From Calditrichia bacterium (GTDB taxonomy: Bacteria > Calditrichota > Calditrichia > RBG-13-44-9 > J075), in NCBI GenBank assembly GCA_020635015.1, contig JACKAP010000011.1, forward strand, positions 39,025 through 103,024: a stretch of DNA of 64,000 nucleotides, in the 5' to 3' direction. Shown in pieces: positions 30,310 to 43,642 of this stretch (positions are counted from its first letter, which is position 1; every line of letters begins with the position of its first letter). A program made the position numbers and the translations under genes. The notes beneath the pieces were generated by a model that saw nothing but the letters and a program-made list of their open reading frames with translations, had not been told where the DNA came from and did no database searches.

Positions 30310-30347
30310 TTCATCAGTTCAAAGCGTCATATAGCTTAAACAGATAT

Positions 30348-30399
30348 CGCTCAAAACGCTCATTTTGTTTGCATCCCGGCGAATTTACAGTTATATTTG
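30348..30399 (+). promoter_or_regulatory. Candidate promoter with an upstream direct repeat: CGCTCAAAACGCTCA - TTTG(-33) - TATATTTG(-7)
   Basis: The region reads atatCGCTCAAAACGCTCAttttgTTTGcatcccggcgaatttacagtTATATTTGaat. It is almost superimposable on 37874-37926 upstream of the CarH-like gene. TAnnTTTG and TTTG about 20 nt upstream fit the Bacteroidetes-type promoter consensus. Confidence 0.55.
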
Positions 30400-31938: not shown

Positions 31939-32123
31939 GAATAGAACGCGGATGACGCGGATGGTGCGGATTTACGCGGATGACTGCTTATGTTAAAAGA
32001 CAAAGACTAAAGGATACTTTGTGGCCTATGCATTTGTTTGCGACGTTTTCGGTAAATTTTTGATAACACCACGCGAAGCATCATAAAAAATCCGTGAGAA
32101 TCCGCGTCATCCGCGTTCTATTC
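31939..32123. repeat. MITE-like element with GAATAGAACGCGGATGACGCGGATG TIRs, copy 2
   Basis: The left end is gaatagaacgcggatgacgcggatggtgcggatttacgcggatgac. The reverse complement of the right end is gaatagaacgcggatgacgcggattctcacggatt. The interior shares gttaaaagacaaa and gataacaccacgcgaagca with copy 1. It lies between the convergent TspO-like and LOV genes. Confidence 0.85.
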
Positions 32124-32145
32124 GCCCCAGCGAGCGGGCAGGATT

Positions 32146-33408
32146 TTAATGTACTTCCAGGGCCATCAGCGATAGATCATCGGCAAAATCGCTATGCCCA
32201 TGCCACTCCTCCAGGCTGGCCAGGATGTTAACCAGGCTCTCCCGTAGAGAAACGTCGCGGGAGCGCTCGATTTCCTGCATCAACCGTTCCCGGCCAAAAT
32301 GTTCGAAATCTGCATTACGTGCCTCGACAACCCCGTCGGTATACATGTAGAGGCGGTCGCCGGGATGCAGTTTGATGCAATGCTGCTTATAAGACGGATG
32401 GTCGACGAAACCGATCGGGTAGGCCGGAAATTGCAGCGCCTTGCCCTGGCGGGCCCGGGGCAATAGCATCGGCCCGGGATGCCCGGCCACGCTGAAGCAG
32501 AATTCGCGCTGAACCGTATCGAGGATCCCGTAGAGAATGGTAAAATATTGCAAGGTGTGGGAGCTCATCGGAAAACGGGCGTTGAGCTTTTCCACTACTT
32601 CCCGGGGCGTAGACAGGGAAAATTCGCCGCTGCCGTTGGCCGCCGGCTTGTAAAGCGAAGAGTGTGCCGGCAGCGGGGAAAGCCAGTGGTTGAGGGTCAC
32701 CGAGAGCAGCGCCGCCGGCACTCCGTGTCCGCTGACGTCTAAAATATAGATACCGTAATGGGTCTCATCGAGTGAAACGATGTTCAGGGTATCGCCGGCC
32801 AGTTCGCTGCAGGGGCGCAGGGTCCAATAAATTTCGATGCCCTCGATCGCCGGCACCTGGCGGGGCAGCAGGGCCTGCTGAATATTCGCCGCCGTTTCCA
32901 GGTCGCGCGTCATGCGGCGATTGACCGTCTCCAACTGCTCTTTGGCCCGGGCCAGGGCCTCTTCGGCGCGCTTGCGCTCGCTGATGTCCGATTGAATCCC
33001 GATAAAATGCGTCACCTTATTGTCGGCATCGCGCACCGGAGTGATGGTCAGGCGGTTCCAGAAGGCGCTGCCATCCTTGCGGTAATTGAGGATGTCTACC
33101 GTGCACTCCCGTTCTTCAGCGATGGCGCTACGGATCTCGGCCACGGTCTGGGGATCGGTATCCGGTCCCTGGAGAAAGCGGCAGTTGTAGCCGATAATCT
33201 CCGCGTCGCTATAGCCGGTCAAACGCTTGAATCCCTCGTTGGCAAAAATGATCGGGTTGTCCGGGAGTGAAACATCGGTGATCGTAATACCTTCCGAGGT
33301 AGCGGCCAGGGCGCGGTTTTTCAGGGCTAACTCATCGGCCAGGCGTTCCCATTCGCTCTGTTCTTCCGGGGAAGGGGGTATTAGCGGCGAAATATGCTTG
33401 GGATCCAT
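32146..33408 (-). CDS. LOV-domain (FMN, blue-light) sensor fused to a PP2C/SpoIIE-type serine phosphatase
   Basis: ORF of 420 aa. The LOV core reads ITITDVSLPDNPIIFANEGFKRLTGYSDAEIIGYNCRFLQGPDTDPQTV, including the photoactive-cysteine motif NCRFLQG. A coiled linker follows, then SpoIIE/PP2C motifs (AGDTLNIV, YILDVSGHGVPAALL, LYMYTDGVVEA). Confidence 0.88.
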   Translation of the reverse strand: MDPKHISPLIPPSPEEQSEWERLADELALKNRALAATSEGITITDVSLPDNPIIFANEGFKRLTGYSDAEIIGYNCRFLQGPDTDPQTVAEIRSAIAEERECTVDILNYRKDGSAFWNRLTITPVRDADNKVTHFIGIQSDISERKRAEEALARAKEQLETVNRRMTRDLETAANIQQALLPRQVPAIEGIEIYWTLRPCSELAGDTLNIVSLDETHYGIYILDVSGHGVPAALLSVTLNHWLSPLPAHSSLYKPAANGSGEFSLSTPREVVEKLNARFPMSSHTLQYFTILYGILDTVQREFCFSVAGHPGPMLLPRARQGKALQFPAYPIGFVDHPSYKQHCIKLHPGDRLYMYTDGVVEARNADFEHFGRERLMQEIERSRDVSLRESLVNILASLEEWHGHSDFADDLSLMALEVH

Positions 33409-33526
33409 AACTTATCCGGTCTGCATCTTCCAATACTTGCTACGGACTTTATACAGCTTTTTGGATAATACGCAACCCGTTCGGTATATGCAAATAAAAA
33501 TCTGGGTGGAAATCGCTTCGAAGAGT

Positions 33527-34972
33527 TTATTCCGGCCGATACGCGATTATCTGCTTTATCATCTTTCCAAAGACGATGAAGTGAAACGGCAGCACCGCAT
33601 ACCAATAAAGCCGCCCGCTCAGACCATTGGGGCGGAAGGTGGCGATCTGGTGCAGCACGCCGCCATTTTCGCTCGGGGTGATGCGAAACTCCAGCCAGGC
33701 CTCTCCGGGAAGCTTCATTTCTGCATAGAGCAGCAGACGTTTCTTTTCAGGGTCAGCCAGCAGCACCCGCCAAAAATCCAGGGCGTCGCCCGGCTCCAAA
33801 TGATCCCGGTTGGTGCGCCCGCGGCGCAGGCCGACACCGCCGACCAGTTTATCAAGAAAGCCGCGGATACGCCACAGCCAGTTCGATCCGTACCAGCCCC
33901 GCTCTCCACCGATCGCCCAGATGTTTTCCAACACCTTCTCCGGATCACAGGCAAAGGCGCGATTGCGCCGATCGGTCAGGCAGCCGTGCTCCGGCACCTG
34001 TACAAAATCGCTGTATTTACCGTGGACGGTGCCGCTGACCCAGGCATCTTTCCAACTGGAAATGACCGCATTCTCGGCAATCTTGGAAAAAGCCCGCTTC
34101 ACTGCTGCCTCGTAGGGCAGGCATTGATGCGGGATGATCTGGTGAATGTCATGATTCTTACAAATTACCTCATTGCGCAGGCTGTCCACCAGACTGCGCG
34201 CCAGGGAGAAGGAGGTGGCGGTGACAAAATACAGCCAATACGAGGATAACTGCGGGGTCAGCACCGGTACGTTGATGACATAACGCCGGAGCCGGCGCAC
34301 TTTCGCGAACCGGAGCATCATCTCTTTGTAAGTGAGAATATCCGGACCGCCGATATCAAAGCTGCGATTGAGACACTCGGGATGGCCGATCACCTGGCGC
34401 AGGTAATAGATCACGTCATGAATCGCGATCGGCTGGCTGCGGTTGTTGACCCAGCGCGGCGCGATCATCAGCGGCAGCTTTTCGACCAGGTCGCGGATGA
34501 TCTCGAAGGAAGCACTGCCGGAACCGATGATAATCCCGGCGCGCAGCACCGTCAGGGGAATCCCGGCGCTACCGAGGATTTTTTCCACATTGTGACGCGA
34601 TTTCAGATGGGGAGAGAGATCACGGTCATTGACGATACCGCTCAAGTAAAAGGTCTGTTTCAGGGAGGTATCGCGCATGCGCCGCATGAAATTTTCCGCG
34701 CAGCGCTGCTCCATCTCGGCAAAGTCGCTGGCGGTGTTGCTCATCGAATGCACCAGGTAAAAAGCGGTGTCGATATCGGCGGGAACTTTCTCGAGAGAAG
34801 CGTAATCGAGCAGATCCCCACCGATCACGCTTACCCGACCGCGCAGCCCCTCCGGAACGTTCAGCCGCCGGGGATCGCGCACCAGGCACACCACCTCGTG
34901 CCCGTCCTCCACCAGCACCGGCAGCAGCCGCTTTCCGATGTAGCCGTTGGCGCCGGTCAGTAAAATTTTCAT
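33527..34972 (-). CDS. NAD(P)-binding atypical SDR (NmrA/epimerase-like) fused to a DUF2867-like C-terminal domain
   Basis: ORF of 481 aa with MKILLTGANGYIGKRLLPVLVEDGHEVVCLVRDP (Rossmann GxxGxxG) and a C-terminal ~170 aa of SRPBCC-like character. Confidence 0.8.
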   Translation of the reverse strand: MKILLTGANGYIGKRLLPVLVEDGHEVVCLVRDPRRLNVPEGLRGRVSVIGGDLLDYASLEKVPADIDTAFYLVHSMSNTASDFAEMEQRCAENFMRRMRDTSLKQTFYLSGIVNDRDLSPHLKSRHNVEKILGSAGIPLTVLRAGIIIGSGSASFEIIRDLVEKLPLMIAPRWVNNRSQPIAIHDVIYYLRQVIGHPECLNRSFDIGGPDILTYKEMMLRFAKVRRLRRYVINVPVLTPQLSSYWLYFVTATSFSLARSLVDSLRNEVICKNHDIHQIIPHQCLPYEAAVKRAFSKIAENAVISSWKDAWVSGTVHGKYSDFVQVPEHGCLTDRRNRAFACDPEKVLENIWAIGGERGWYGSNWLWRIRGFLDKLVGGVGLRRGRTNRDHLEPGDALDFWRVLLADPEKKRLLLYAEMKLPGEAWLEFRITPSENGGVLHQIATFRPNGLSGRLYWYAVLPFHFIVFGKMIKQIIAYRPE

Positions 34973-34982
34973 GGGTTACCTT

Positions 34983-35038
34983 TGGGTGTATGGGTTAATG
35001 GGTGTATGGGTTAATGGGTGTATGGGTGTATGGGTGTA
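34983..35038. repeat. Octamer array TGGGT(G/T)(T/A)A x7
   Basis: The array reads tgggtgta tgggttaa tgggtgta tgggttaa tgggtgta tgggtgta tgggtgta. It begins 11 nt upstream of the SDR/DUF2867 start codon (minus strand). A related array lies at 50574-50605. Confidence 0.9.
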
Positions 35039-35039
35039 G

Positions 35040-35059
35040 GGTCGAGTCGCGACTCGACC
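35040..35059. repeat. Perfect 20-bp palindrome GGTCGAGTCGCGACTCGACC
   Basis: All 10 base pairs were checked by hand. It lies between the octamer array and the 14-mer array, inside a putative operon. Confidence 0.95.
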
Positions 35060-35083
35060 TCACGGTGCCAAATTCGACCGTCA

Positions 35084-35125
35084 ACCATTGCGCATTTACC
35101 ATTGCGCATCTACCATTACCCATTA
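35084..35125. repeat. 14-mer array ACCATTGCGCAT(T/C)T x3 (last unit degenerate)
   Basis: The array reads accattgcgcattt accattgcgcatct accattacccatta. The last unit overlaps the stop codon of the SRPBCC gene. A related sequence lies at 50640-50681. Confidence 0.85.
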
Positions 35126-35556
35126 TTTAGCCATCGCCGGTACACCGGCCGGCGATATAAGAACTGTAGTTTCAAAACCGGATAAAGCAGGTAGTCCAAC
35201 AGTTTTATCCGGCCTTGATAGGTAATGTCGTCCACAATCAAGGTCTGTTCCCCCTGGCGGATCAGGCGGTGCCGGTGCCGCCAGGAACGGAACATGAAGG
35301 GCAACTGCCGCCCTTCATCGACAAAATAAATTTCATCTTCTGTCTCCACCAATTCGGTGATGACGCTGATCCAGATCTCTTTGCGGAAGAGAAAATTCAG
35401 CTCCAGGTGCACCTCGTCTCCGGGCTGCATGCCGTCAAAGCGCAGCAGCCGCACCGGCGGGAATGGGGGATTCAGTTGGAGGAACAGATCTCTCCCGAAC
35501 CGGGAAAAAGACCGGCGAAACTCTTGATTGACGCGGGTGGTGACTTGCAGGCGCAT
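35116..35556 (-). CDS. SRPBCC-superfamily (polyketide cyclase/START-like) small protein
   Basis: ORF of 146 aa. Its start ATG immediately follows the photolyase stop (TAA ATG). The family call is from general sequence character only. Confidence 0.55.
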   Translation of the reverse strand: MRLQVTTRVNQEFRRSFSRFGRDLFLQLNPPFPPVRLLRFDGMQPGDEVHLELNFLFRKEIWISVITELVETEDEIYFVDEGRQLPFMFRSWRHRHRLIRQGEQTLIVDDITYQGRIKLLDYLLYPVLKLQFLYRRPVYRRWLNNG

Positions 35557-37089
35557 TTACAAGGTGTCCTGGTTTTCTTGATAATAACGGGCCTGTTGGC
35601 GGATGTTATCTAATTCCTCCGGATCCATCCGATCGAGATTGCGGTAAGCCATGCCCACCCGGGGATTGTTTCCCAGCAACGCCCGGTGACGGTCGAAAAA
35701 GTCCCAATACAAGCTGTTGAAAGGGCAGGCCCCCTCGCCGTAGCGCTTCTGCCGGTCGTAGTGGCAGCCCCGGCAGTAGTTGCTCATCTTGTGAATGTAA
35801 TTCGCCGAGGAGACGTAGGGCTTGGTGGCGGCAATCCCGCCATCGGCGTACTGGCTCATGCCCCGGGTGTTGGTGATCTCTACCCACTGGATGGCGTCGA
35901 TGTAGATTCCCAGATACCAGGCATCGACCGCATCGGGATGCACGCCCAGCAAGTTGGCGAAATTCCCGGTGATCATCAGCCGCTGGATGTGATGGGCGTA
36001 GGCCAGGTCGAGCGACTGGGTAATAGCGTGGCGCAGGCAGTTCATGCGGGTGTCGCCGGTCCAGTAAAATGCCGGCAGCGGGCGCCGGTGATCGAAATAG
36101 TTTAATTGCTCGTATTCCGGCATGGTATCCCAGTAAATGCCGCGCATAAATTCCCGCCAGCCGATGATCTGGCGGATGAAGCCTTCCACCTGGGCGATGT
36201 CGACGGCTTCCGGATGGGCTTGCCAGTAATCGAGCGTCTTCTGCACGATTTCCCGGGGATGGAGCAGCTTGAGGTTCATGGCAAAGGAAAGGCGCGAATG
36301 ATACAGGTAGGGAGACCCGGTATCCATTGCATCCTGGTAGGTGCCGAAGTTCGCCAGGCCGTTGGCCAGAAAGTGGTCAAGCAGTTGCTGCGCTTCATGA
36401 TGATCGAGGGGCCAGGGGAAATGCGCCGCATCGATCCGGCCGATGGTGTCAATCTCCAGCGAGCGGATCAGGTCGACGATCTCGGAGACGTCGTGATCGA
36501 AATTGAGCGGTGCCGGCGGGGTAAGACGCTGCGGAAGCGCTTTGCGGTTCTCCGCATCGTAGTTCCAGCGACCGCTCAAAGGCCGCTCACCGTCCATCAG
36601 AATATCCCACTTGCGGCGCATGTGGCGGTAGAATGCCTCCATCACGAATGTCTTGCGGCCGCGGAAAAATGCGCCGACTTCCTCCCGGGATGAAAGGAAG
36701 TGCTCGCTATCCGCTGCGGCGACCGGGATATCACTCTCAGCTGCAAACTGCTTCAACAGCTGGTCGAGACGGTATTCGTCGGGAAGCAGGTATTCGAATC
36801 GTTCGATCCGGCGCGCATCGATCAGCCGGGTCAGGTTGGCCGGAAAGCTTTGGAGATTTTCCGGATCATTCAGGCGTAGGTAAACAAAATCATGCCCGGC
36901 TTCGGACATTGCCTCAGCAAAGCGGCGCATGGCGGCAAAGAAACCGGCAATTTTCTGAATATGATGGGTTACATAGCGCGTTTCCGGAAGCACTTCCATC
37001 ATGAGGTAAGTGATTTCCGGATCGACCCGGGCAAACCAGCTGTGCCGGTCGTTCAGCTGGTCGCCCAATATTAAACGCAGTTTTCGCAT
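35557..37089 (-). CDS. phrB: Fe-S cluster-containing bacterial cryptochrome/(6-4) photolyase (FeS-BCP; PhrB/CryB type)
   Basis: ORF of 510 aa with long colinear identity to Agrobacterium PhrB as I recall it: LILGDQL, GRWNYDAENR, VEGFIRQIIGWREFMRGIYW, FYWTGDTRMNCLRH, AYAHHIQRLMITGNFA, MSQYADGG, MSNYCRGCHYD...GACPFNSLYWDF. The four Fe-S cysteines are conserved. Confidence 0.9.
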   Translation of the reverse strand: MRKLRLILGDQLNDRHSWFARVDPEITYLMMEVLPETRYVTHHIQKIAGFFAAMRRFAEAMSEAGHDFVYLRLNDPENLQSFPANLTRLIDARRIERFEYLLPDEYRLDQLLKQFAAESDIPVAAADSEHFLSSREEVGAFFRGRKTFVMEAFYRHMRRKWDILMDGERPLSGRWNYDAENRKALPQRLTPPAPLNFDHDVSEIVDLIRSLEIDTIGRIDAAHFPWPLDHHEAQQLLDHFLANGLANFGTYQDAMDTGSPYLYHSRLSFAMNLKLLHPREIVQKTLDYWQAHPEAVDIAQVEGFIRQIIGWREFMRGIYWDTMPEYEQLNYFDHRRPLPAFYWTGDTRMNCLRHAITQSLDLAYAHHIQRLMITGNFANLLGVHPDAVDAWYLGIYIDAIQWVEITNTRGMSQYADGGIAATKPYVSSANYIHKMSNYCRGCHYDRQKRYGEGACPFNSLYWDFFDRHRALLGNNPRVGMAYRNLDRMDPEELDNIRQQARYYQENQDTL

Positions 37090-37104
37090 CGCTTCACCGG
37101 CGGG

Positions 37105-37767
37105 TTATTGAATGATCGAGGACCACTCGTTCAACTGTTTCGACTTCTCGGCCAGATCGTTTAAATCGAGCAGATGGCCGGATTTTTTTGCCTTGGTGAA
37201 CAGGTAGAACTGGTTTGCCGGGTTGGGATCGATCTGCAAGGGGATGCGATTCACCACCGGAATGCCGGCCGCTTTCAGGCCTTCGATCTTTTGGGGATTG
37301 TTGGTGAGGAGGTCGACGGTCTTAACGCCGAGCAGCTTCAGCATCTCCGCGGCAACGTCGTAATTGCGCAGGTCATCGGGGAAGCCCAGGGCATGGTTCG
37401 CTTCCACCGTATCGTAGCCGGCTTCCTGAAGGGCATAGGCGCGGATCTTGTTGCCCAGCCCGATGCCCCGGCCTTCCTGGCGCATATAGAGCACAATGCC
37501 TTTACCGGCCCGGGCCACATGCTTCAACGCGGCGTGCAGTTGCTCCCGGCAGTCGCACTTTAAAGAGCCCAATACTTCACTGGTCAGGCACTCCGAGTGA
37601 ATGCGGGTCGGAATGTTTTCGCCATTACGCACATCACCCTGCACAATCGCCAGGTGTTCTTTATAATCGATATTATTCCGGAAAACGTAGACGTCGAACG
37701 TCCCATGTAAGGTCGGGAGTTTGGTTTTGGCGTATACGAATACGTTTTCTTTGATTTCTGCCAGCAT
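37105..37767 (-). CDS. ribA: GTP cyclohydrolase II
   Basis: ORF of 220 aa with RIHSECLTSEVLGSLKCDCREQL (the zinc Cys triad), LYMRQEGRGIGLGNKIRAY and DTVEANHALGFPDDLRNY. Confidence 0.93.
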   Translation of the reverse strand: MLAEIKENVFVYAKTKLPTLHGTFDVYVFRNNIDYKEHLAIVQGDVRNGENIPTRIHSECLTSEVLGSLKCDCREQLHAALKHVARAGKGIVLYMRQEGRGIGLGNKIRAYALQEAGYDTVEANHALGFPDDLRNYDVAAEMLKLLGVKTVDLLTNNPQKIEGLKAAGIPVVNRIPLQIDPNPANQFYLFTKAKKSGHLLDLNDLAEKSKQLNEWSSIIQ

Positions 37768-37811
37768 GATTGTTCCCTTCAGTTTAGAGATATTGTTTGC
37801 ATGTTTTGCAT

Positions 37812-37829
37812 GCGCGTTTTGAGCGTTTT
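37812..37829 (-). promoter_or_regulatory. Direct-repeat motif AAAACGCTCAAAACGCGC facing ribA (candidate operator)
   Basis: The minus strand reads aaaACGCTCAAAACGCGCAtgcaaaacatgcaaacaatatctctaaactgaagggaacaatcATG(ribA). This is a mirror-image partner of the motif at 37874-37888. Confidence 0.45.
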
Positions 37830-37873
37830 AATGATAGCGAATCAAAAGCCCATAATCAAGTAAAATAAAAAAA

Positions 37874-37926
37874 CGCTCAAAACGCTCATTTTTGGTTGAC
37901 TACCTCCGCGCGGTATGTTATATTTG
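37874..37926 (+). promoter_or_regulatory. Candidate promoter/operator of the CarH-like gene: CGCTCAAAACGCTCA - TTGACT - 17 nt - TATATTTG
   Basis: The region reads aaaaCGCTCAAAACGCTCAtttttggTTGACTacctccgcgcggtatgtTATATTTGaat. The -10/-7 box ends about 40 nt before ATG 37968. It has the same architecture as 30348-30399. Confidence 0.6.
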
Positions 37927-37967
37927 AATGTTCGCAAATTAAGCAATTGTAATAGAAAGGATAGCGT

Positions 37968-38834
37968 ATGGAAGGAATTCGTCACTTTAATAGCATCGAA
38001 GTCGCCCGGATTCTCGGGGTGAATGTTTCGACTGTGAAACGCTGGACCGAAGAGGGCAAGCTGGAATGCATCAAAACCGCCGGCGGCCACCGCAAATTTC
38101 TGATGGCCCATCTCGGCGATTATGTCAAGAATTACAAGAAGAAGCATACGATTATCAATTTATTCCCGATGGAGGATGAGAATGATCTGCAAATCAGCTA
38201 TCGAATTCTGAAACACGACTATCCTTTTTTGATCGATTACGTGGTTACCCAGGCGCTGGAATCCCGCCTGGAGAAGGTGCAGCAGGTGCTTAACGGCCTT
38301 TACCTGGGGCAGCATCCCCTGCACAAGATTTACGACCGCCTGATCACCCCGGCGCTCCACCGCCTGGGACAGATGTGGCATAATGACGAGCTTTCGATTA
38401 TCGAAGAGCATTTCGGCTCCCAGACCATCCGCGATAGCCTGATCCGCCTGCAGGGGATCATCAGCATCCCCTCGGAAAAAATCGGGCGGGCGATCTGTCT
38501 CAATCTCTCGACAGAATTGCACGATATTGCCTTGAAAATGGTGGCGAATATCCTGGAGCTGCGCGGCTATCAGGTCTATTTCAGCGGACAGTTTACCGAC
38601 ATCTTCAAGATCGAATATGCCTTTGAGAAATTCCGCCCGGAGCGGATCTATCTGTCCTGCACCTGGGTGGAAGATCTGGAAAAGACTCAGGCCGAGCTGG
38701 AGAAGATCTTGAAAAATTGCGATATTTACAACACGTCGATGTATCTCGGCGGGCAGGGGGTACGGCTGCTAAAGCTCGACCATCCCCGCATTGCCCGGGT
38801 GATCGATTCTTTCGAGGATGTGCAGCGTTATTAA
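37968..38834 (+). CDS. CarH/LitR-type regulator: MerR/excisionase-type HTH plus a cobalamin-binding domain
   Basis: ORF of 288 aa. The HTH is IEVARILGVNVSTVKRWTEEGKLECIKTAGGHRKF. The B12 module has W-x9-EH (MWHNDELSIIEEH) and ELHDIALKM, with His at the lower-ligand position. A Rossmann-like remainder follows. Confidence 0.8.
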   Translation: MEGIRHFNSIEVARILGVNVSTVKRWTEEGKLECIKTAGGHRKFLMAHLGDYVKNYKKKHTIINLFPMEDENDLQISYRILKHDYPFLIDYVVTQALESRLEKVQQVLNGLYLGQHPLHKIYDRLITPALHRLGQMWHNDELSIIEEHFGSQTIRDSLIRLQGIISIPSEKIGRAICLNLSTELHDIALKMVANILELRGYQVYFSGQFTDIFKIEYAFEKFRPERIYLSCTWVEDLEKTQAELEKILKNCDIYNTSMYLGGQGVRLLKLDHPRIARVIDSFEDVQRY

Positions 38835-38935: not shown

Positions 38936-38998
38936 TTCTAAAAGACTCAATAGATAGTGCACCAAATACTACAAATACTAAATGAAAGTAGATTCACA

Positions 38999-41341
38999 AT
39001 GAAACAACATAATCTTCACTTCTACCGCTTTATCGTGCTGGTGATGCTCCTGATGCTGGCCCAGGGCATGTTGGCCCAGGGCAACGGGCGCATCAGCGGG
39101 AAGGTGGTTGATGAGAAAACTCAAGAACCGCTGATCGGGGTCAACATCGAGGTGCTCGGCAGCAATACCGGCACCACGACCGACAGCGAAGGCAGCTTTT
39201 GGCTGGAACAGTTAATCCCGGGCACGTATCGCCTGCGTTTTTCCTATATCGGCTACCAGGATCTGGTGCTGACCGACATCATCGTCAATTCCGCTCGCCC
39301 GGCGATCGTCAACGCCCGGCTGCTGATCGCGCCGGTAGAAGGGGAAGCGGTGACGGTAACCTCCGGCTACTTCTCCGACGCCAGCGACAAGCCGGTCAGC
39401 AACATCACCTTCTCCCGGGAGGAGATCCGCCGCTTTCCCGGCGGTTTCGAAGATGTGGTGCGTACTGTGGCTTCGCTGCCCGGAGTGTCGGTGGTGAACG
39501 AGGGCGGGCGCAATGACCTGCTGGTGCGTGGGGGCGGGCCGAGCGAAAACCTCTACCTGGTCAACAATATCGAAGTTCCCAACATCAACCATTTCGGTTC
39601 CCAGGGCAGCAGTAGCGGATCGCTGAGTTTCGTCAATCTCGATTTTGTAGAGAACGTGGAATTCTCCACCGGCGGCTTCGGGGTGCGTTACGGCGACAAG
39701 ATGTCTTCGGTGATGGCGCTGACCCTGCGCCCGGGGCGGGAGGACCGCCTCGGCGGCAAGGCCACCATCTCCGCCACCCAGTTCGGGCTTAACCTGGAAG
39801 GGCCGCTGGGACAGAAAGGGAATTTCATCTTTTCCGCCCGCAAGAGCTACCTGGACCTGATCTTCAAAGCTGCCGGCCTGCCGTTTATTCCGACATATAC
39901 CGATTTCAACCTGGTCGGTTATTACGACCTTTCCCCCCGCGATAAGCTGACTGTACTGGGCCTGGCGGCAATCGACCGGGTCGACCGCGACCAGAGCACC
40001 CTGGAAAACCGGGTGACCAATGCCGGGATCATGGACAATACCCAGAACCAGTTCATCAGCGGGATCAATTACCGGAGATTAATGAACCGGGGCTTTGTCG
40101 ACCTGACCCTGAACAACAACTATAACGAATTCCGCTTCAGCCAGATCGACGAGCAGGAAGTAGAATACTTTAACAGCCGGGCCAACGAGATCGAGACCGG
40201 TATCAAGCTGACTGCTTACCGCAAACTTTCCGGCAGCGCCGGGCTGTTTGGCGGTTTATCGTACAAGCATATCAGCAATGATAACCGCACCGTATTTGCC
40301 GACACCATCTACAACCGCAGCGGCAACCCGGTTGCGATCAGCGGCACCGATCTGCCGCAGCGGAGCGTTGTCAATACCGCAGCCGGCAAATACGCCGCCC
40401 ATCTGGAGTTGGAAAAACAGTTGCTGAAATCCCTATCCCTCAGCCTGGGAATTCGCGGCGATTATTACAGCTTTCTCGAAGACCCCGCCTACCCGGCGGC
40501 ACGTGCCGCACTGCGCTGGCAGGCCGGGACAAGGATTAGCTTCAAGGCCAGCCTGGGGCGCTATTTTCAGGCCCCGTCCTATGTCTGGGTGGTCAATCCG
40601 GCCAACCGCGACCTGAAAGCACTGCGCAACGACATGGCCATTCTGGGCGGCAGCTACCTGTTCCGCGAGGATCTCCGCCTCTCCCTGGAAACCTATTACA
40701 AGCGCTATCGCGATCTGCCCACCGGCGCCACCCCGGAAACCGCCTACCTGGTGTTGACCAATACCGGGGTCGGCTACGGCGGCCGGGAAGATGATTTCCA
40801 GTCGTTCGGCTACATTCCCCTGACCTCCGCCGCCAGCGGCCGGGCCTACGGAGCGGAGCTGCTGCTGCAAAAGCGTTTTTCCGATCTGCCCCTTTACGGC
40901 CAGATGAGCCTGGCCTGGGGAAAGAGTGAATATACCGCCGGCAATGAGATCACCTATCCCGGCGAATTTGACCAGCGATTCATTTTCAACCTCTCCGGCG
41001 GTTATAAATTCAACCGCAGCTGGGAAGTCAGCGCCAAGTTCCGCCTCTTCAGCGGCGCGCCGTTTACCCCGGTCTACCGCCCGGCGGAAAATGGCGGCAC
41101 GATCCAGAATCTGCCCGGAGAGTATCTCGCCGAACGCCTGGAAACCGGGCACTTGCTCGACGTGCGGATCGACCGCCGCTTCAACTTCCGCGCCTGGAGC
41201 CTGATCCTGTTCGCCGACGTGCAGAATGTCTACAACAATAAGCTGCAATTGCGCCCGCGTTACGATTTCTGGGAGGATGTGGTGGATGACCGGGAAGCAT
41301 TGGGGCTGCTGCCCTCGATCGGCATCAGCGCGGAGTTTTGA
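38999..41341 (+). CDS. TonB-dependent receptor with a CarboxypepD_reg domain
   Basis: Part of ORF 38957..41341. I set the start at ATG 38999 (MKQHNLHFYRFIVLVMLLMLAQGMLAQG). It shows GKVVDEKTQEPLIGVNIEVLGS..TDSEGSFWL, a plug region, a barrel, and a terminal ...GISAEF. Confidence 0.88.
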   Translation: MKQHNLHFYRFIVLVMLLMLAQGMLAQGNGRISGKVVDEKTQEPLIGVNIEVLGSNTGTTTDSEGSFWLEQLIPGTYRLRFSYIGYQDLVLTDIIVNSARPAIVNARLLIAPVEGEAVTVTSGYFSDASDKPVSNITFSREEIRRFPGGFEDVVRTVASLPGVSVVNEGGRNDLLVRGGGPSENLYLVNNIEVPNINHFGSQGSSSGSLSFVNLDFVENVEFSTGGFGVRYGDKMSSVMALTLRPGREDRLGGKATISATQFGLNLEGPLGQKGNFIFSARKSYLDLIFKAAGLPFIPTYTDFNLVGYYDLSPRDKLTVLGLAAIDRVDRDQSTLENRVTNAGIMDNTQNQFISGINYRRLMNRGFVDLTLNNNYNEFRFSQIDEQEVEYFNSRANEIETGIKLTAYRKLSGSAGLFGGLSYKHISNDNRTVFADTIYNRSGNPVAISGTDLPQRSVVNTAAGKYAAHLELEKQLLKSLSLSLGIRGDYYSFLEDPAYPAARAALRWQAGTRISFKASLGRYFQAPSYVWVVNPANRDLKALRNDMAILGGSYLFREDLRLSLETYYKRYRDLPTGATPETAYLVLTNTGVGYGGREDDFQSFGYIPLTSAASGRAYGAELLLQKRFSDLPLYGQMSLAWGKSEYTAGNEITYPGEFDQRFIFNLSGGYKFNRSWEVSAKFRLFSGAPFTPVYRPAENGGTIQNLPGEYLAERLETGHLLDVRIDRRFNFRAWSLILFADVQNVYNNKLQLRPRYDFWEDVVDDREALGLLPSIGISAEF

Positions 41342-41426: not shown

Positions 41427-41566
41427 TTGTCCACGGATTACACGGATTGACACGGATGGATTGATGGTGCGAATGATTCGGGAGTTCTTGGAAATAGGTA
41501 TAAAAAGTTTATCTTTTATTTCCGGAACAGAACAAATCAATCAGTGTTAATCCGTGTAATCCGTGG
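41427..41566. repeat. MITE-like 140-bp element of the CCACGGATT 9-mer type
   Basis: The left end is ttgtccacggattacacggattgacacggat. The right end is atcagtgttaatccgtgtaatccgtgg. The termini are nearly identical to the compact hairpin at 30245-30309 but enclose an ~85-bp AT-rich interior. Confidence 0.9.
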
Positions 41567-41595
41567 ATTCAAAAAACAGCTTTGAGGTATATGCC

Positions 41596-42004
41596 ATGCA
41601 TTCTGAAAAAGCGCATCATTGTTTGATCGTCGGAGGCGGCCTGGCCGGGTTGATGGCGGCTCGCAAATTGCATGATGCGGGTATCGGCGTTACTGTGCTC
41701 GACAAGGGGCGGGGGCTGGGAGGAAGGCTGGCGACCCGGCGCTTCAGCCATCCGGAAGTGGGAGATGGTCGCGACGACACTCCTGAAAGCCGCGGCGCCC
41801 TGGGTTAAATCGCCGGTGCTGCGCTACCAATTGCACCGCTGGCGCTACAGTCAGCCGCTCAGCGGCGGCACGCCGGAATATTACCGGACGCTGGGGGCTC
41901 CCGCACCGCTGATCCTCGCCGGAGACGGCTTCAGCGGCGGCCGGGTGGAAGGGGCCGCCTGCTCCGGCCTGGCAGCTGCGGAGGCATTGCTGGCAACGGT
42001 TTAG
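41596..42004 (+). pseudogene. Remnant of a renalase-like NAD/FAD-dependent oxidoreductase: N-terminal ~55 aa and C-terminal ~80 aa joined by an internal deletion and a frame change
   Basis: Frame 1 reads MHSEKAHHCLIVGGGLAGLMAARKLHDAGIGVTVLDKGRGLGGRLATRRF (dinucleotide-binding GxGxxG). Frame 2 (ORF 41672..42004) reads ...HRWRYSQP...LILAGDGFSGGRVEGAACSGLAAAEALL, the typical C-terminal FAD motif. The ~200 aa expected between them are absent. Confidence 0.65.
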
Positions 42005-42140: not shown

Positions 42141-43457
42141 TTAGTTGGCGATGATTTCCGCGCCCAGCGCTTTATTGCCGGCGCCGCTGACCAATCCCTT
42201 TGCGAATACAGTGTAAATCTTACCATCTTCCAAAACAATACCGGGCAGGTCAAGCACGACGGTCGAGGTACCGGCCAGCCGAACCTGCAGATTATAGGTA
42301 GCGGCATCCAGCGGGGTAAAGTCGGTCGCTTGCTTAAATTCGTAATTACCGAACACCACGCTGCCGTCGGTCAGGGTGATATCGACCGCCGGGGCATCGG
42401 GCGAAAGGTGGATGAAGCGCACATGGGCTTTACCGGCTGCCGGGGCGGTCAGGTCGTCTTCGAACACCAGCGGGGTGATCTTGCTGAGCACGTCAACCGC
42501 GAAGATCGAGTAGTTCTGATCAGCCGTAAATACCAGGTCGGCTTCGATCACGGTCTGGGAAGTACCGCTCGCATTTACCTTGATGTTGCGGGTGCCGGGA
42601 TTCACTTCCAGGTAGCCGGTGTTGGCGGGAAATTCCAGGGCGGCGCTGTTTACCACCGCGTCATCCAGCAGCAGGTCGACACCGGGCGCATCGGGAGAAG
42701 CATGAATCACCATCACATTGGCCCGGGCATCGGTGGTCAGATCGACGAAGGCATCACCGGCATTATTGTCGACAAACACCCGCACAGCAAAGGGATAGTT
42801 GGTGTCGGTCAGGGTGCCGTGCGCCACTACGGTGTAAACCGAGCCGTTGGTCACCGTGATCGGATCAAATACCACCACTTCGGTATCCGAACCGGTCGGC
42901 GTTACCACGAAGGTATAAGTGCCGGCATCGACTTCGATATAGTCGGTGAACTGCTCAAAGGGCACATTTGTGAACACCGCCGGGCCGCTGCCGCTATTCA
43001 GTTTCACATCCACCGCCGGGGCATCGGGAGCGGTGTGCACCAGGCGCACTTTTGCTTTGCTGCTATTGGCGCTGCGGGCATCTTCACTCACGATGGCACC
43101 GATATTGGCCAGCTCATTGACGGCATATACCGTATATTCTTTATCCTGCTCCAGCGTCAGATCCACATCGATCACGATCGGGCTGGTCGCGCCGGTAGGG
43201 GATACCTGAATGTTACGAGTGCCGGCGGGTACCTCGGCATAACCGGAAGTTTCGCCATACGCGAGGTTGGCAATCGCCACGCTTCCGTCAACCCATATAT
43301 CAACTGCCGGGGCATCGTAGCTGGTGTGAATGACACGCACCTTCGCATTGCCGTCCGGCTCATTGTTGTTTACCGGGTTGCTGTCACTATCGCACGCAGT
43401 CAGCATGATTGCGGCCATCGCGACCATCACCACACTAAAAAACTTAAAACGCTTCAT
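42141..43457 (-). CDS. Lipoprotein made of four DUF4397-like repeats
   Basis: ORF of 438 aa with the lipobox MLTAC. A repeated module, (V/L)R(V/F)IH(T/A/L)SPDAP(A/G)VD(I/V/L)...Y.E(V)..G.....V...G, occurs four times. Confidence 0.8.
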   Translation of the reverse strand: MKRFKFFSVVMVAMAAIMLTACDSDSNPVNNNEPDGNAKVRVIHTSYDAPAVDIWVDGSVAIANLAYGETSGYAEVPAGTRNIQVSPTGATSPIVIDVDLTLEQDKEYTVYAVNELANIGAIVSEDARSANSSKAKVRLVHTAPDAPAVDVKLNSGSGPAVFTNVPFEQFTDYIEVDAGTYTFVVTPTGSDTEVVVFDPITVTNGSVYTVVAHGTLTDTNYPFAVRVFVDNNAGDAFVDLTTDARANVMVIHASPDAPGVDLLLDDAVVNSAALEFPANTGYLEVNPGTRNIKVNASGTSQTVIEADLVFTADQNYSIFAVDVLSKITPLVFEDDLTAPAAGKAHVRFIHLSPDAPAVDITLTDGSVVFGNYEFKQATDFTPLDAATYNLQVRLAGTSTVVLDLPGIVLEDGKIYTVFAKGLVSGAGNKALGAEIIAN

Positions 43458-43545: not shown

Positions 43546-43642
43546 TGAGCGTTTTGAGCGTTTTCGAAAGCAATAATATAACGGTGGAGTTCAAATGTCA
43601 AGCAAAAAATCAAAAATATCGCTCAAATCGCTCAAATTTGAG
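43546..43642. repeat. Inverted pair of the (A)ACGCTCAA 9-mer direct repeat
   Basis: The left arm tgagcgttttgagcgtttt (43546-43564) is the reverse complement of AAAACGCTCAAAACGCTCA. The right arm is atcgctcaaatcgctcaaa (43618-43636), followed by tttgag. The motif is the same as at 30348, 37812 and 37874. Confidence 0.85.

Follow-up and report, generated by a model that had tools for sequence, protein, structure and literature searches.

The 64,000-nucleotide stretch of DNA analysed here (hereafter the window; C3:39025-103024) belongs to a 5.7-Mb Calditrichaceae metagenome-assembled genome that is 84% complete. In this window, carH2, a gene for a CarH/LitR-type regulator, diverges from a series of minus-strand genes that code for GTP cyclohydrolase II (ribA), an Fe-S cryptochrome/photolyase (phrB), an SRPBCC-like protein, a short-chain dehydrogenase/reductase (SDR) fused to DUF2867 and, at the 3' end, a LOV photosensor fused to a SpoIIE-type phosphatase (LOV-PP2C). 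We found that the locus is best explained as part of an adenosylcobalamin (AdoCbl)-responsive CarH/LitR-type light regulon, with the LOV-PP2C gene acquired horizontally at the 3' end of the operon. We give this reading a probability of roughly two in three. It is built on the gene content, the key residues of the encoded proteins, an operator that recurs in the genome and is conserved in relatives, and synteny.

Results

A nine-nucleotide repeat marks the candidate regulon

The 200 nucleotides (nt) that separate the divergent ribA and carH2 genes hold a 20-nt inverted repeat, 95% complementary, each arm of which consists of two tandem 9-nt units. In this shared promoter region the inverted pair is laid out as TGAGCGTTT x2 ... 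AAACGCTCA x2, and both arms lie next to candidate promoters (Table 1). Within the window, the same element stands before the SDR/TspO-like operon and as a pair before a DUF4397 gene. Elsewhere in the genome, a pair separates carH1, a paralogue of carH2, from a crtI-crtI-crtB operon on contig C54. An arm also precedes an operon for a NUDIX/IspA fusion, RudS (DUF523+DUF1722), an SRPBCC protein and a classical photolyase (C1:461657-466082), and a further site precedes another DUF4397 gene (C1:472728-475787). Altogether, the genome has nine near-perfect arms (at most 2 mismatches), versus 0, 1 and 0 in three simulated first-order Markov genomes.

The operator arms are also conserved at orthologous genes in the relatives G001 (a sister species), G003 and G005 and in the related genus g10. 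The element is found at ribA-phrB-photolyase and at SDR/DUF2867 in G001, at phrB in G005, at ribA in G003, and at carH2 and DUF4397 in g10. The arrangement at the DUF4397 gene of g10 (L118:14470-15795) is the same as in the window. Since the operator accompanies DUF4397 genes both in this genome and in g10, exported proteins seem to be light-regulated as well.

Assignment of the element to CarH is backed independently by the form of the repeat. Direct repeats of 9 bp, with the consensus AATTxxxx(C), are bound by BldC protomers in head-to-tail order (PMC5859096). The operator unit AAAACGCTC fits this repeat form, and the DNA-binding domain of CarH2 is BldC-like (see below).

Some further observations were made at these sites. 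One of the DUF4397 proteins has 1019 residues and a type IX secretion tail, and in G001 a fasciclin gene adjoins a third arm. RudS is a tRNA 4-thiouridine desulfidase, and a peroxiredoxin-like gene is divergent from the operon that encodes it together with NUDIX/IspA, SRPBCC and photolyase. Finally, an operator pair at C5:18944-19033 brackets a TTGACA-17-TATCTT promoter that reads into an oppositely oriented DUF1295-DUF2878 operon from its 3' end. There is no plausible open reading frame (ORF) downstream of this promoter, which could drive an antisense or small RNA.

The CarH2 regulator and its paralogue

CarH2 comprises a BldC-like winged helix-turn-helix domain (residues 9-46), a four-helix bundle and a Rossmann-type B12 domain. 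The W-x9-EH motif and the His-containing B12 loop that the first-pass annotation had read in this regulator are both present: W137-x9-E147-H148 and His185 (STELHDIAL) align to the same motif residues of CtMerR (8JBS) and of Thermus thermophilus CarH (5C8D). Experiments have shown that CtMerR, the best solved relative (E 1.4e-27), binds AdoCbl and is responsive to green light (PMC11796333). For the DNA-binding domain, both NCBIfam (HTH_BldC, 3.3e-11) and the PDB (6AMA, E 6e-6, over 40 residues) give BldC as a match.

The published signature of light-responsive CarH proteins consists of GxxW, EH, GxxH and GxxxP (PMC11796333), and CarH2 keeps the first two as GQMW and EEH. The proline of GxxxP is missing from the whole CarH2 clade, which reads GQFTD here and GQYTS in the g10 orthologs (L118:12041-12907); the paralogue CarH1 keeps it (GQITP). 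In CtMerR, this proline touches the adenosyl group of the neighbouring subunit. Its loss in the CarH2 clade may alter oligomerisation or photochemistry.

CarH1 is 57% identical to CarH2, and the DNA-binding domains of the two proteins are nearly identical. Its gene lies on C54 (C54:94000-113000, L124), divergent from crtI-crtI-crtB-acyltransferase. Of note, a B12-independent CarH paralogue, CarA, is known from Myxococcus (PMC9304148).

Photolyase, ribA and the other genes of the operon

The photolyase matches the solved family members 7YKN (E 9.6e-156), 4DJA (E 6.1e-135) and 3ZXS (E 1.7e-129) over its full length, and its N-terminal DPRP domain scores 260.6 bits with PF04244. All four Fe-S cluster cysteines that had been picked out from the sequence, Cys351, Cys439, Cys442 and Cys455 (in MNCLRH, YCRGCHYD and GACPFNSLYW), align to the cysteines of the solved (6-4) photolyase 7YKN. 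The protein is probably a (6-4) photolyase, and by family membership it would carry the antenna 6,7-dimethyl-8-ribityllumazine and perform (6-4) repair.

The neighbouring ribA product is well supported as a GTP cyclohydrolase II by NCBIfam (NF001591, 263 bits against a cut-off of 148; TIGR00505, 243 bits against 205.85), and the Zn-binding Cys triad C60-x10-C71-x-C73 is present. The genome has three genes for this activity: a bifunctional housekeeping ribBA on C53 and two monofunctional genes, each beside a carH. The second monofunctional ribA, 73% identical to the first, comes after carH1 on C54. Linkage of ribA to phrB occurs in at least four further genera of Calditrichaceae; it is kept in G001, in G003 and in three genomes of g10, and g10 also keeps the divergent arrangement of carH2 with ribA-phrB. 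In G001, a gene for a photolyase of the cyclobutane pyrimidine dimer (CPD) type follows ribA-phrB. The riboflavin pathway yields the lumazine antenna, flavin adenine dinucleotide (FAD) and flavin mononucleotide (FMN), and the ribA gene of Escherichia coli is responsive to oxidative stress. A chromophore-supply role for ribA is therefore a reasonable inference, for which folE, induced by light in the LitR regulon of Pseudomonas (PMC9758184), is the nearest precedent. The supply link between ribA and phrB is lineage-specific; a general linkage of ribA to Fe-S photolyases outside the Calditrichaceae was considered and rejected (0 of 18 loci, 1.5-kb flanks).

The 146-residue product of the gene that abuts phrB had been labelled SRPBCC. 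The label draws on the names given to its homologues by their sources ('ligand-binding SRPBCC') and on a paralogue with a Polyketide_cyc hit, to which it is 30% identical over 69 residues; Pfam and NCBIfam give no match for the protein itself. Its gene comes after phrB in G005 (63% identity) and in G038 (43%). The next gene, SDR/DUF2867, has orthologs in relatives with 59-72% identity. G005 shows the order operator-phrB-SRPBCC-SDR/DUF2867 with short gaps, a perfect operator arm stands 3 nt away from a -35 at the G001 ortholog (72% identity), and in G025 SDR/DUF2867 adjoins a carH gene. These arrangements indicate that the SRPBCC-like and SDR/DUF2867 genes are native members of the regulon. In the window, the best operator-like matches before SDR/DUF2867 or LOV-PP2C have 8-9 mismatches of 18 and were rejected as operators. 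An SRPBCC/photolyase linkage in Bacteroidota was also looked for and discarded, as none of three contexts contained a photolyase.

LOV-PP2C is an intact photosensor-phosphatase fusion

The first-pass annotation described a LOV domain with the photoactive-cysteine motif fused to a SpoIIE/PP2C phosphatase, and both the motif and Pfam bear this out. The motif GYNCRFLQG begins at residue 73, with Cys76 as the adduct-forming residue, and the domain matches solved LOV domains with an E-value of 3.8e-40. The protein is laid out as an A'alpha helix (14-36), a LOV core (40-141), a linker helix of 37 residues (143-179) and a PP2C domain (191-419). The AlphaFold model has a mean predicted local distance difference test (pLDDT) score of 90.2 and shows 143-179 as one continuous helix. 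Comparison of 26 homologues shows no variation at Cys76, R77, Q80, R93, N108 or N118 and at least 90% conservation of Q139; R77, Q80, R93, N108, N118 and Q139 are residues that we take to contact FMN. The phosphatase part scores 140 bits with Pfam SpoIIE (cut-off 25), and its metal-binding residues D206, D224, D358, D410 and D411 are invariant in the same homologues. LOV-PP2C is intact, and flavin binding and a photocycle are predicted.

Control through a coiled-coil linker is known for PPM phosphatases such as RsbP and RsbU (PMC12143880), and the sensor/helical linker/PPM layout of LOV-PP2C matches this type. The family is large, with 3623 matches among 8000 scored candidates, typically about 50% identical. 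As had been remarked beforehand, such proteins occur in genome censuses, and LOV-SpoIIE is a recognised architecture in the LOV census (PMC4844311). No characterised member was found in the literature searched.

The first-pass annotation also stated that the partner-switching target is not encoded here, and proposed that the genome be searched for partners. The window indeed has no STAS or RsbW gene, the nearest STAS gene lying about 68 kb past its end. The genome contains 24 SpoIIE-type, 20 STAS and about 5 RsbW-type matches; none of the STAS and RsbW-type matches is adjacent to LOV-PP2C, and triads of STAS, RsbW and PP2C sit on other contigs, C6 and C8. About 14 of the STAS proteins have a single domain, and RsbW-type kinases are encoded on C6, C8, C1 and C34.

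Origin and neighbourhood of the LOV-PP2C gene

None of 40 relatives has an ortholog of LOV-PP2C at the corresponding position. Adjacency of the gene to the CarH unit was seen only in this species and in a 99%-identical twin, the metagenome contig L116, which has the same gene order as the window. G001, G037 and G039 encode a distinct LOV-PP2C of 398 residues (L125:9211-10407, L126:9425-10621 and L127:8880-10076) with the motif GKNCRFLQ or GNNCRFLQ, only 37-39% identical to the protein of the window, whereas homologues from other phyla are 50-55% identical. A tree (mafft and FastTree; no support values shown) nests the window protein among Acidobacteria- and Planctomycetota-type sequences and groups the G001, G037 and G039 proteins with Balneolales (a Fodinibius protein) and Bacteroidota. 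This position among distant phyla indicates horizontal acquisition. A second LOV gene was not found in the window's own, 84% complete genome.

We also looked at the surroundings of LOV-PP2C genes elsewhere. Flanks of 10 kb around LOV-PP2C in 80 loci of named genomes contained no PhrB, RibA or CarH (0/80). The same loci yielded one SDR/DUF2867 neighbour, in Fibrobacteraceae, and one close homologue of the 243-residue SDR (SDR243), in Vicinamibacteria, 51% identical and 1 kb from LOV-PP2C. Genes at the high-GC loci L037 and L042 were placed by tblastn anchors. In two long contigs with LOV-PP2C homologues the neighbours are unrelated. A general linkage of LOV-PP2C to photolyase, ribA or carH was rejected on the basis of these loci and contigs.

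As to regulation, neither of the two intergenic gaps upstream of the LOV gene (143 nt and 118 nt) contains a terminator-like site. The G001 LOV-PP2C gene has an operator arm with 1 mismatch in its 341-nt upstream region, which could equally serve a divergent TetR-like gene. No operator was found near STAS, RsbW or sigma genes in the genome. Coupling of LOV-PP2C to the rest of the locus is plausible but unproven.

Layout of the locus and neighbouring features

The genes and motifs listed by the first-pass annotation are all present, as judged by ORFs, Pfam and motif reads. ORF positions likewise agree with its description of a minus-strand series that is divergent from the B12 regulator and convergent with an SDR/TspO-like pair, and with its placement of ribA directly upstream of phrB. 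Gaps along the minus strand are 15 nt (ribA/phrB), 0 nt (phrB/146-residue gene), 143 nt (146-residue gene/SDR-DUF2867) and 118 nt (SDR-DUF2867/LOV-PP2C), and 212 nt separate LOV-PP2C from the convergent pair. All features are collected in Table 1.

Table 1. Genes, candidate promoters, operator arms and repeat element of the light locus, in window coordinates.
Feature	Position	Strand	Remarks
Single operator arm TGAGCGTTTTGAGCGATA	30345..30362	-	Ends 6 nt before the SDR/TspO-like promoter's -35
Promoter-like site, SDR/TspO-like operon	30368..30397		
SDR, 243 aa	30437..31168	+	Pfam adh_short_C2 1.7e-39
Trp-rich multi-pass membrane protein, weakly TspO/MBR-like, 249 aa	31184..31933	+	TspO_MBR 2.2e-4
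LOV-PP2C (SpoIIE-type), 420 aa	32146..33408	-	Pfam PAS_9 1.1e-23 and SpoIIE 1.1e-40
Candidate sigma-70-like promoter TTTGCA-18-TATTAT	33465..33494	-	In the 118-nt gap before LOV-PP2C
Atypical SDR (NmrA/NAD_binding_10) fused to DUF2867, 481 aa	33527..34972	-	DUF2867 3.1e-36
REP-like intergenic element	34973..35115		Octamer array, 20-bp palindrome GGTCGAGTCGCGACTCGACC and 14-mer array
SRPBCC-like protein, 146 aa	35116..35556	-	Start abuts phrB stop; no Pfam match
Fe-S cryptochrome/photolyase (PhrB/CryB type), 510 aa	35557..37089	-	DPRP 1.8e-77
Monofunctional GTP cyclohydrolase II (RibA)	37105..37767	-	Pfam GTP_cyclohydro2 2.1e-66
Operator arm ATGCGCGTTTTGAGCGTTTT	37810..37829	+	1 nt downstream of the ribA -10; covers the ribA start region
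Candidate ribA-operon promoter TTGATT-17-TATCAT	37831..37859	-	Bracketed by both arms
Operator arm AAAACGCTCAAAACGCTCAT	37870..37889	+	6 nt upstream of the carH2 -35
Candidate carH2 promoter TTGACT-17-TATATT with TG extension	37896..37924	+	
carH2, CarH/LitR-type regulator	37968..38834	+	MerR/HTH_17, B12-binding_2 and B12-binding
TonB-dependent receptor, CarboxypepD_reg domain	38957..41341	+	122 nt 3' of carH2; membership of the unit uncertain
DUF4397 protein	42141..43457	-	Promoter bracketed by operator arms
Operator pair, arms 43546-43563 and 43617-43634	43546..43634		Brackets a TTGACA-17-TATATT promoter facing the DUF4397 gene

The gene downstream of SDR243 is present as described, and its label 'TspO-like' holds loosely, with a Pfam TspO_MBR score of 21.4 bits that falls below the cut-off of 24. 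The product has about 7 hydrophobic segments and 9 Trp residues, is longer than a typical TspO, and has orthologs in G001, G011 and G013. The convergent gap between this gene and LOV-PP2C is spanned by a CGCGGAT-rich inverted repeat (31941-31965 / 32100-32125), which may represent a further family of repeat elements or act as a bidirectional terminator.

The 143-nt gap is filled by an element whose palindrome, GGTCGAGTCGCGACTCGACC, has 56 copies genome-wide (up to 2 mismatches). Copies usually lie just past a stop codon, with short tandem arrays (GGGTTAATGGGT..., CAGTTGTCAGTT...) on their flanks. The family looks like a repetitive extragenic palindromic (REP)-like intergenic repeat, one copy of which sits inside the light operon. 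The palindrome in the gap has no T-run, and termination is neither proven nor excluded by it.

On the other side of the locus, the interval from the TonB receptor to the DUF4397 gene contains an 81-residue ORF (41563-41808). Its similarity is confined to the N-terminal, FAD/NAD-binding portion of amine-oxidase/phytoene-desaturase-type enzymes, and it is probably a gene remnant. In G003, the N-terminus of a homologous TonB receptor (L123:3-377) comes after ribA. An Rfam scan of the whole window gave no match, so that neither an FMN riboswitch at ribA nor a cobalamin riboswitch at the TonB receptor was detected.

Discussion

A proposed model for the light regulon

From the evidence above we infer CarH binding to the operator, light induction, chromophore supply, and the target and co-transcription of LOV-PP2C. 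In the dark, CarH2, and probably also CarH1, would be held by AdoCbl as oligomers on the operator arms, each made of two tandem AAAACGCTC units. The inverted arms that bracket the -35/-10 of the ribA promoter and the arm abutting the carH2 -35 would keep ribA-phrB-SRPBCC-SDR/DUF2867 and carH2 itself off. Light would photolyse AdoCbl, the oligomer would break up, and transcription would start. The same switch would also serve the SDR/TspO-like operon, the DUF4397 surface proteins, the carotenoid operon and the second photolyase operon. Extra RibA, co-induced with the Fe-S photolyase, would most likely raise the flux through the riboflavin pathway, and this flux would supply lumazine antenna and FAD to the new photolyase and FMN to flavoproteins.

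The LOV domain would gate the PPM phosphatase by blue light through the long helical linker. The LOV-PP2C gene would probably be transcribed both by read-through and from its own promoter, and its product would most likely dephosphorylate a STAS-type anti-sigma antagonist encoded elsewhere. LOV-PP2C would feed blue light post-translationally, as a separate input, into a partner-switching pathway. A more ambitious version is a two-tier circuit, in which CarH, responding to green and UV light and using its BldC-type domain on a previously undescribed 9-nt-repeat operator, licenses blue-light signalling by LOV-PP2C into a sigma cascade, while ribA loads both the photolyase and the LOV protein with flavin and lumazine. 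We regard this version as speculative and improbable as a whole.

Weighing the alternatives

Several findings weigh against the proposed regulon. The predicted operator, with its 9-nt period and inverted pairs, is unlike every characterised CarH operator, all of which are tandem 11-bp repeats (nnnnTnnACAn), described as TnnACA repeats (PMC9304148). The assignment of the element to CarH, which we consider likely, follows from co-location and from the analogy with BldC. CarH2 itself departs from two of the four signature elements, with TELH for GxxH and GQFTD for GxxxP, and scores 42.4 bits with the NCBIfam CarH model NF052513, far below its cut-off of 400. AdoCbl dependence is therefore not certain. 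Regarding chromophore supply, ribA was not found within 1.5 kb of an Fe-S photolyase gene in any of 18 loci from other phyla. As for LOV-PP2C, its gene has no operator (the best match has 8 mismatches of 18) and follows a promoter-like site of its own after a 118-nt gap, and the REP-like element interrupts the operon upstream of it.

Part of this evidence could mean that the repeat is not a CarH operator at all, or that CarH2 is B12-independent in the manner of Myxococcus CarA, with another regulator or another signal, for example singlet oxygen or redox state, in control. The unusual motif and period would fit, as would the missing GxxxP proline in CarH2 and its g10 orthologs and the missing GxxH glycine in CarH2, and CarA provides a precedent for such a paralogue. 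However, the motif occupies an autoregulatory position at both carH genes and moves with carH or its targets across genera, 9-nt direct repeats are what a BldC-type domain would be expected to read, and CarH2 keeps W, E and H as well as the His ligand. We consider this alternative quite unlikely. A similarly low probability attaches to the idea that the PhrB-like protein is mainly a CryB-type signalling cryptochrome, with ribA supporting signalling and not repair. The protein is related to Rhodobacter CryB (3ZXS, E 1.7e-129), and CryB affects gene expression. Yet the solved proteins closest to it, 7YKN/8A1H and 4DJA, have demonstrated (6-4) photolyase activity, and the PhrB-like protein appears co-regulated with classical photoprotection genes, a CPD-type photolyase gene lying downstream in G001.

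The place of LOV-PP2C in the locus is where readings differ most. The first-pass annotation saw one integrated light module, and for carH2 and the minus-strand series as a unit this idea is sustained by the operator and by synteny. This support does not reach LOV-PP2C, which lacks both an operator and a positional ortholog. Three inputs into one module is a view drawn from adjacency in one species, because LOV-PP2C lacks an operator, has its own promoter-like site and has orphan homologues. Full integration, in which CarH sets the amount of LOV-PP2C, blue light sets its activity and its sigma output falls on the same photoprotective genes, can nevertheless claim that the gene is co-oriented with the operon, that both upstream gaps are free of terminator-like sites, that a LOV-PP2C of another subfamily in G001 has an operator arm with one mismatch upstream, that homologues occur near SDR/DUF2867 in Fibrobacteraceae and near an SDR243-like gene in Vicinamibacteria, and that LOV proteins of Pseudomonas work with LitR (PMC9758184). 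These points are offset by the promoter-like site and missing operator of the window gene, by an adjacency limited to this species and its twin contig, by the TetR-like gene that the G001 arm may serve instead, and by the lack of operators near STAS, RsbW and sigma genes. We judge full integration to be possible but rather unlikely.

At the other extreme, LOV-PP2C could be a horizontally acquired and independently transcribed passenger, with only the CarH-controlled genes forming a unit, a reading that we rate higher than full integration and somewhat short of even odds. The tree sets the protein apart from those of its own genus and class, its identity across phyla (50-55%) exceeds that within the genus (37-39%), its homologues are orphans in unrelated contexts, and the gene has its own promoter-like site in a region rich in REP-like repeats. 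Nonetheless, the gene is co-oriented with SDR/DUF2867 and just 118 nt away from it, the same SDR types are linked to LOV-PP2C in two independent instances, and a precise landing within a light locus would be a notable coincidence.

Relation to known systems

B12 repressors that go together with genes for photolyase, carotenoids and cofactors, and sometimes with LOV proteins, are a known theme in Thermus, Myxococcus, Bacillus and Pseudomonas. CarH2 shares its domain order with class I LitR/CarH proteins (Thermus thermophilus CarH, 5C8D/3WHP; Bacillus megaterium LitR; Myxococcus CarH) and with CtMerR (8JBS). As in these systems, the gene is divergent from photoprotective genes and has an operator in its own promoter, and a paralogue stands beside crtI/crtB. 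Several traits differ. Here a BldC-like domain is paired with inverted 9-nt pairs, whereas in the known operators three to four TnnACA repeats of 11 bp stand in tandem across the -35/-10. The proline of GxxxP and the glycine of GxxH are absent from CarH2, two paralogues have near-identical DNA-binding domains, and the targets include ribA, an Fe-S photolyase, SDR/DUF2867 and DUF4397.

The combination of genes that the first-pass annotation singled out is real, and less unusual than it implied, given that Pseudomonas LitR loci combine a LOV protein, phrB, cryB and folE (PMC9758184). The class II LitR proteins of Pseudomonas putida and P. mendocina (PplR/PmlR) offer the closest parallel in this respect, with LitR, LOV, phrB, a CryB-type gene, SDR and oxidoreductase genes and a GTP cyclohydrolase that feeds a pathway for a photolyase chromophore in one locus. 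Those LitR proteins, however, have no B12 Rossmann domain, and a short LOV protein controls them by binding to them directly, whereas CarH2 keeps the B12 residues and the LOV domain of the window is fused to a PP2C phosphatase. Moreover, their cyclohydrolase is FolE (type I, pterin), and here it is RibA (type II, flavin/lumazine).

The photolyase is full-length collinear with Agrobacterium PhrB (4DJA), Rhodobacter CryB (3ZXS) and Vibrio cholerae FeS-BCP (7YKN), and shares with them the DPRP domain and the four cluster cysteines; what sets it apart is the coupling to ribA in Calditrichaceae, which was not seen in the 18 sampled loci of other phyla. LOV-PP2C resembles RsbP and RsbU of Bacillus subtilis in its sensor, long helical linker and SpoIIE-type PP2C domain with all metal-binding Asp residues, and the genome is rich in STAS and RsbW genes. 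Unlike YtvA, which acts on sigma-B via the stressosome, the LOV domain here is fused directly to the phosphatase, with no STAS, kinase or sigma genes adjacent. Finally, BldC of Streptomyces (6AMA) has a similar winged helix-turn-helix over 40 residues, and AAAACGCTC matches its AT-rich tetranucleotide, four variable bases and C. BldC is a stand-alone protein of 68 residues with no sensor, whereas in CarH2 a B12 light-sensing module is joined to this domain.

Significance

Our results do not overturn the current understanding of these systems. They provide an intact LOV-PP2C for characterisation, from an architecture that is abundant in metagenomes and for which we found no biochemical study in the literature searched. 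Potential uses include LOV-PP2C as an optogenetic phosphatase and the compact operator/repressor pair as a green-light switch. If our interpretation is true, the locus would be a natural case of ribA co-induced with a photolyase that uses lumazine and FAD, and CarH2 would represent a type of CarH that reads DNA in BldC fashion, via 9-bp direct repeats in inverted pairs. Most broadly, CarH/LitR regulons would then extend to the Calditrichota, which are usually regarded as sediment heterotrophs.

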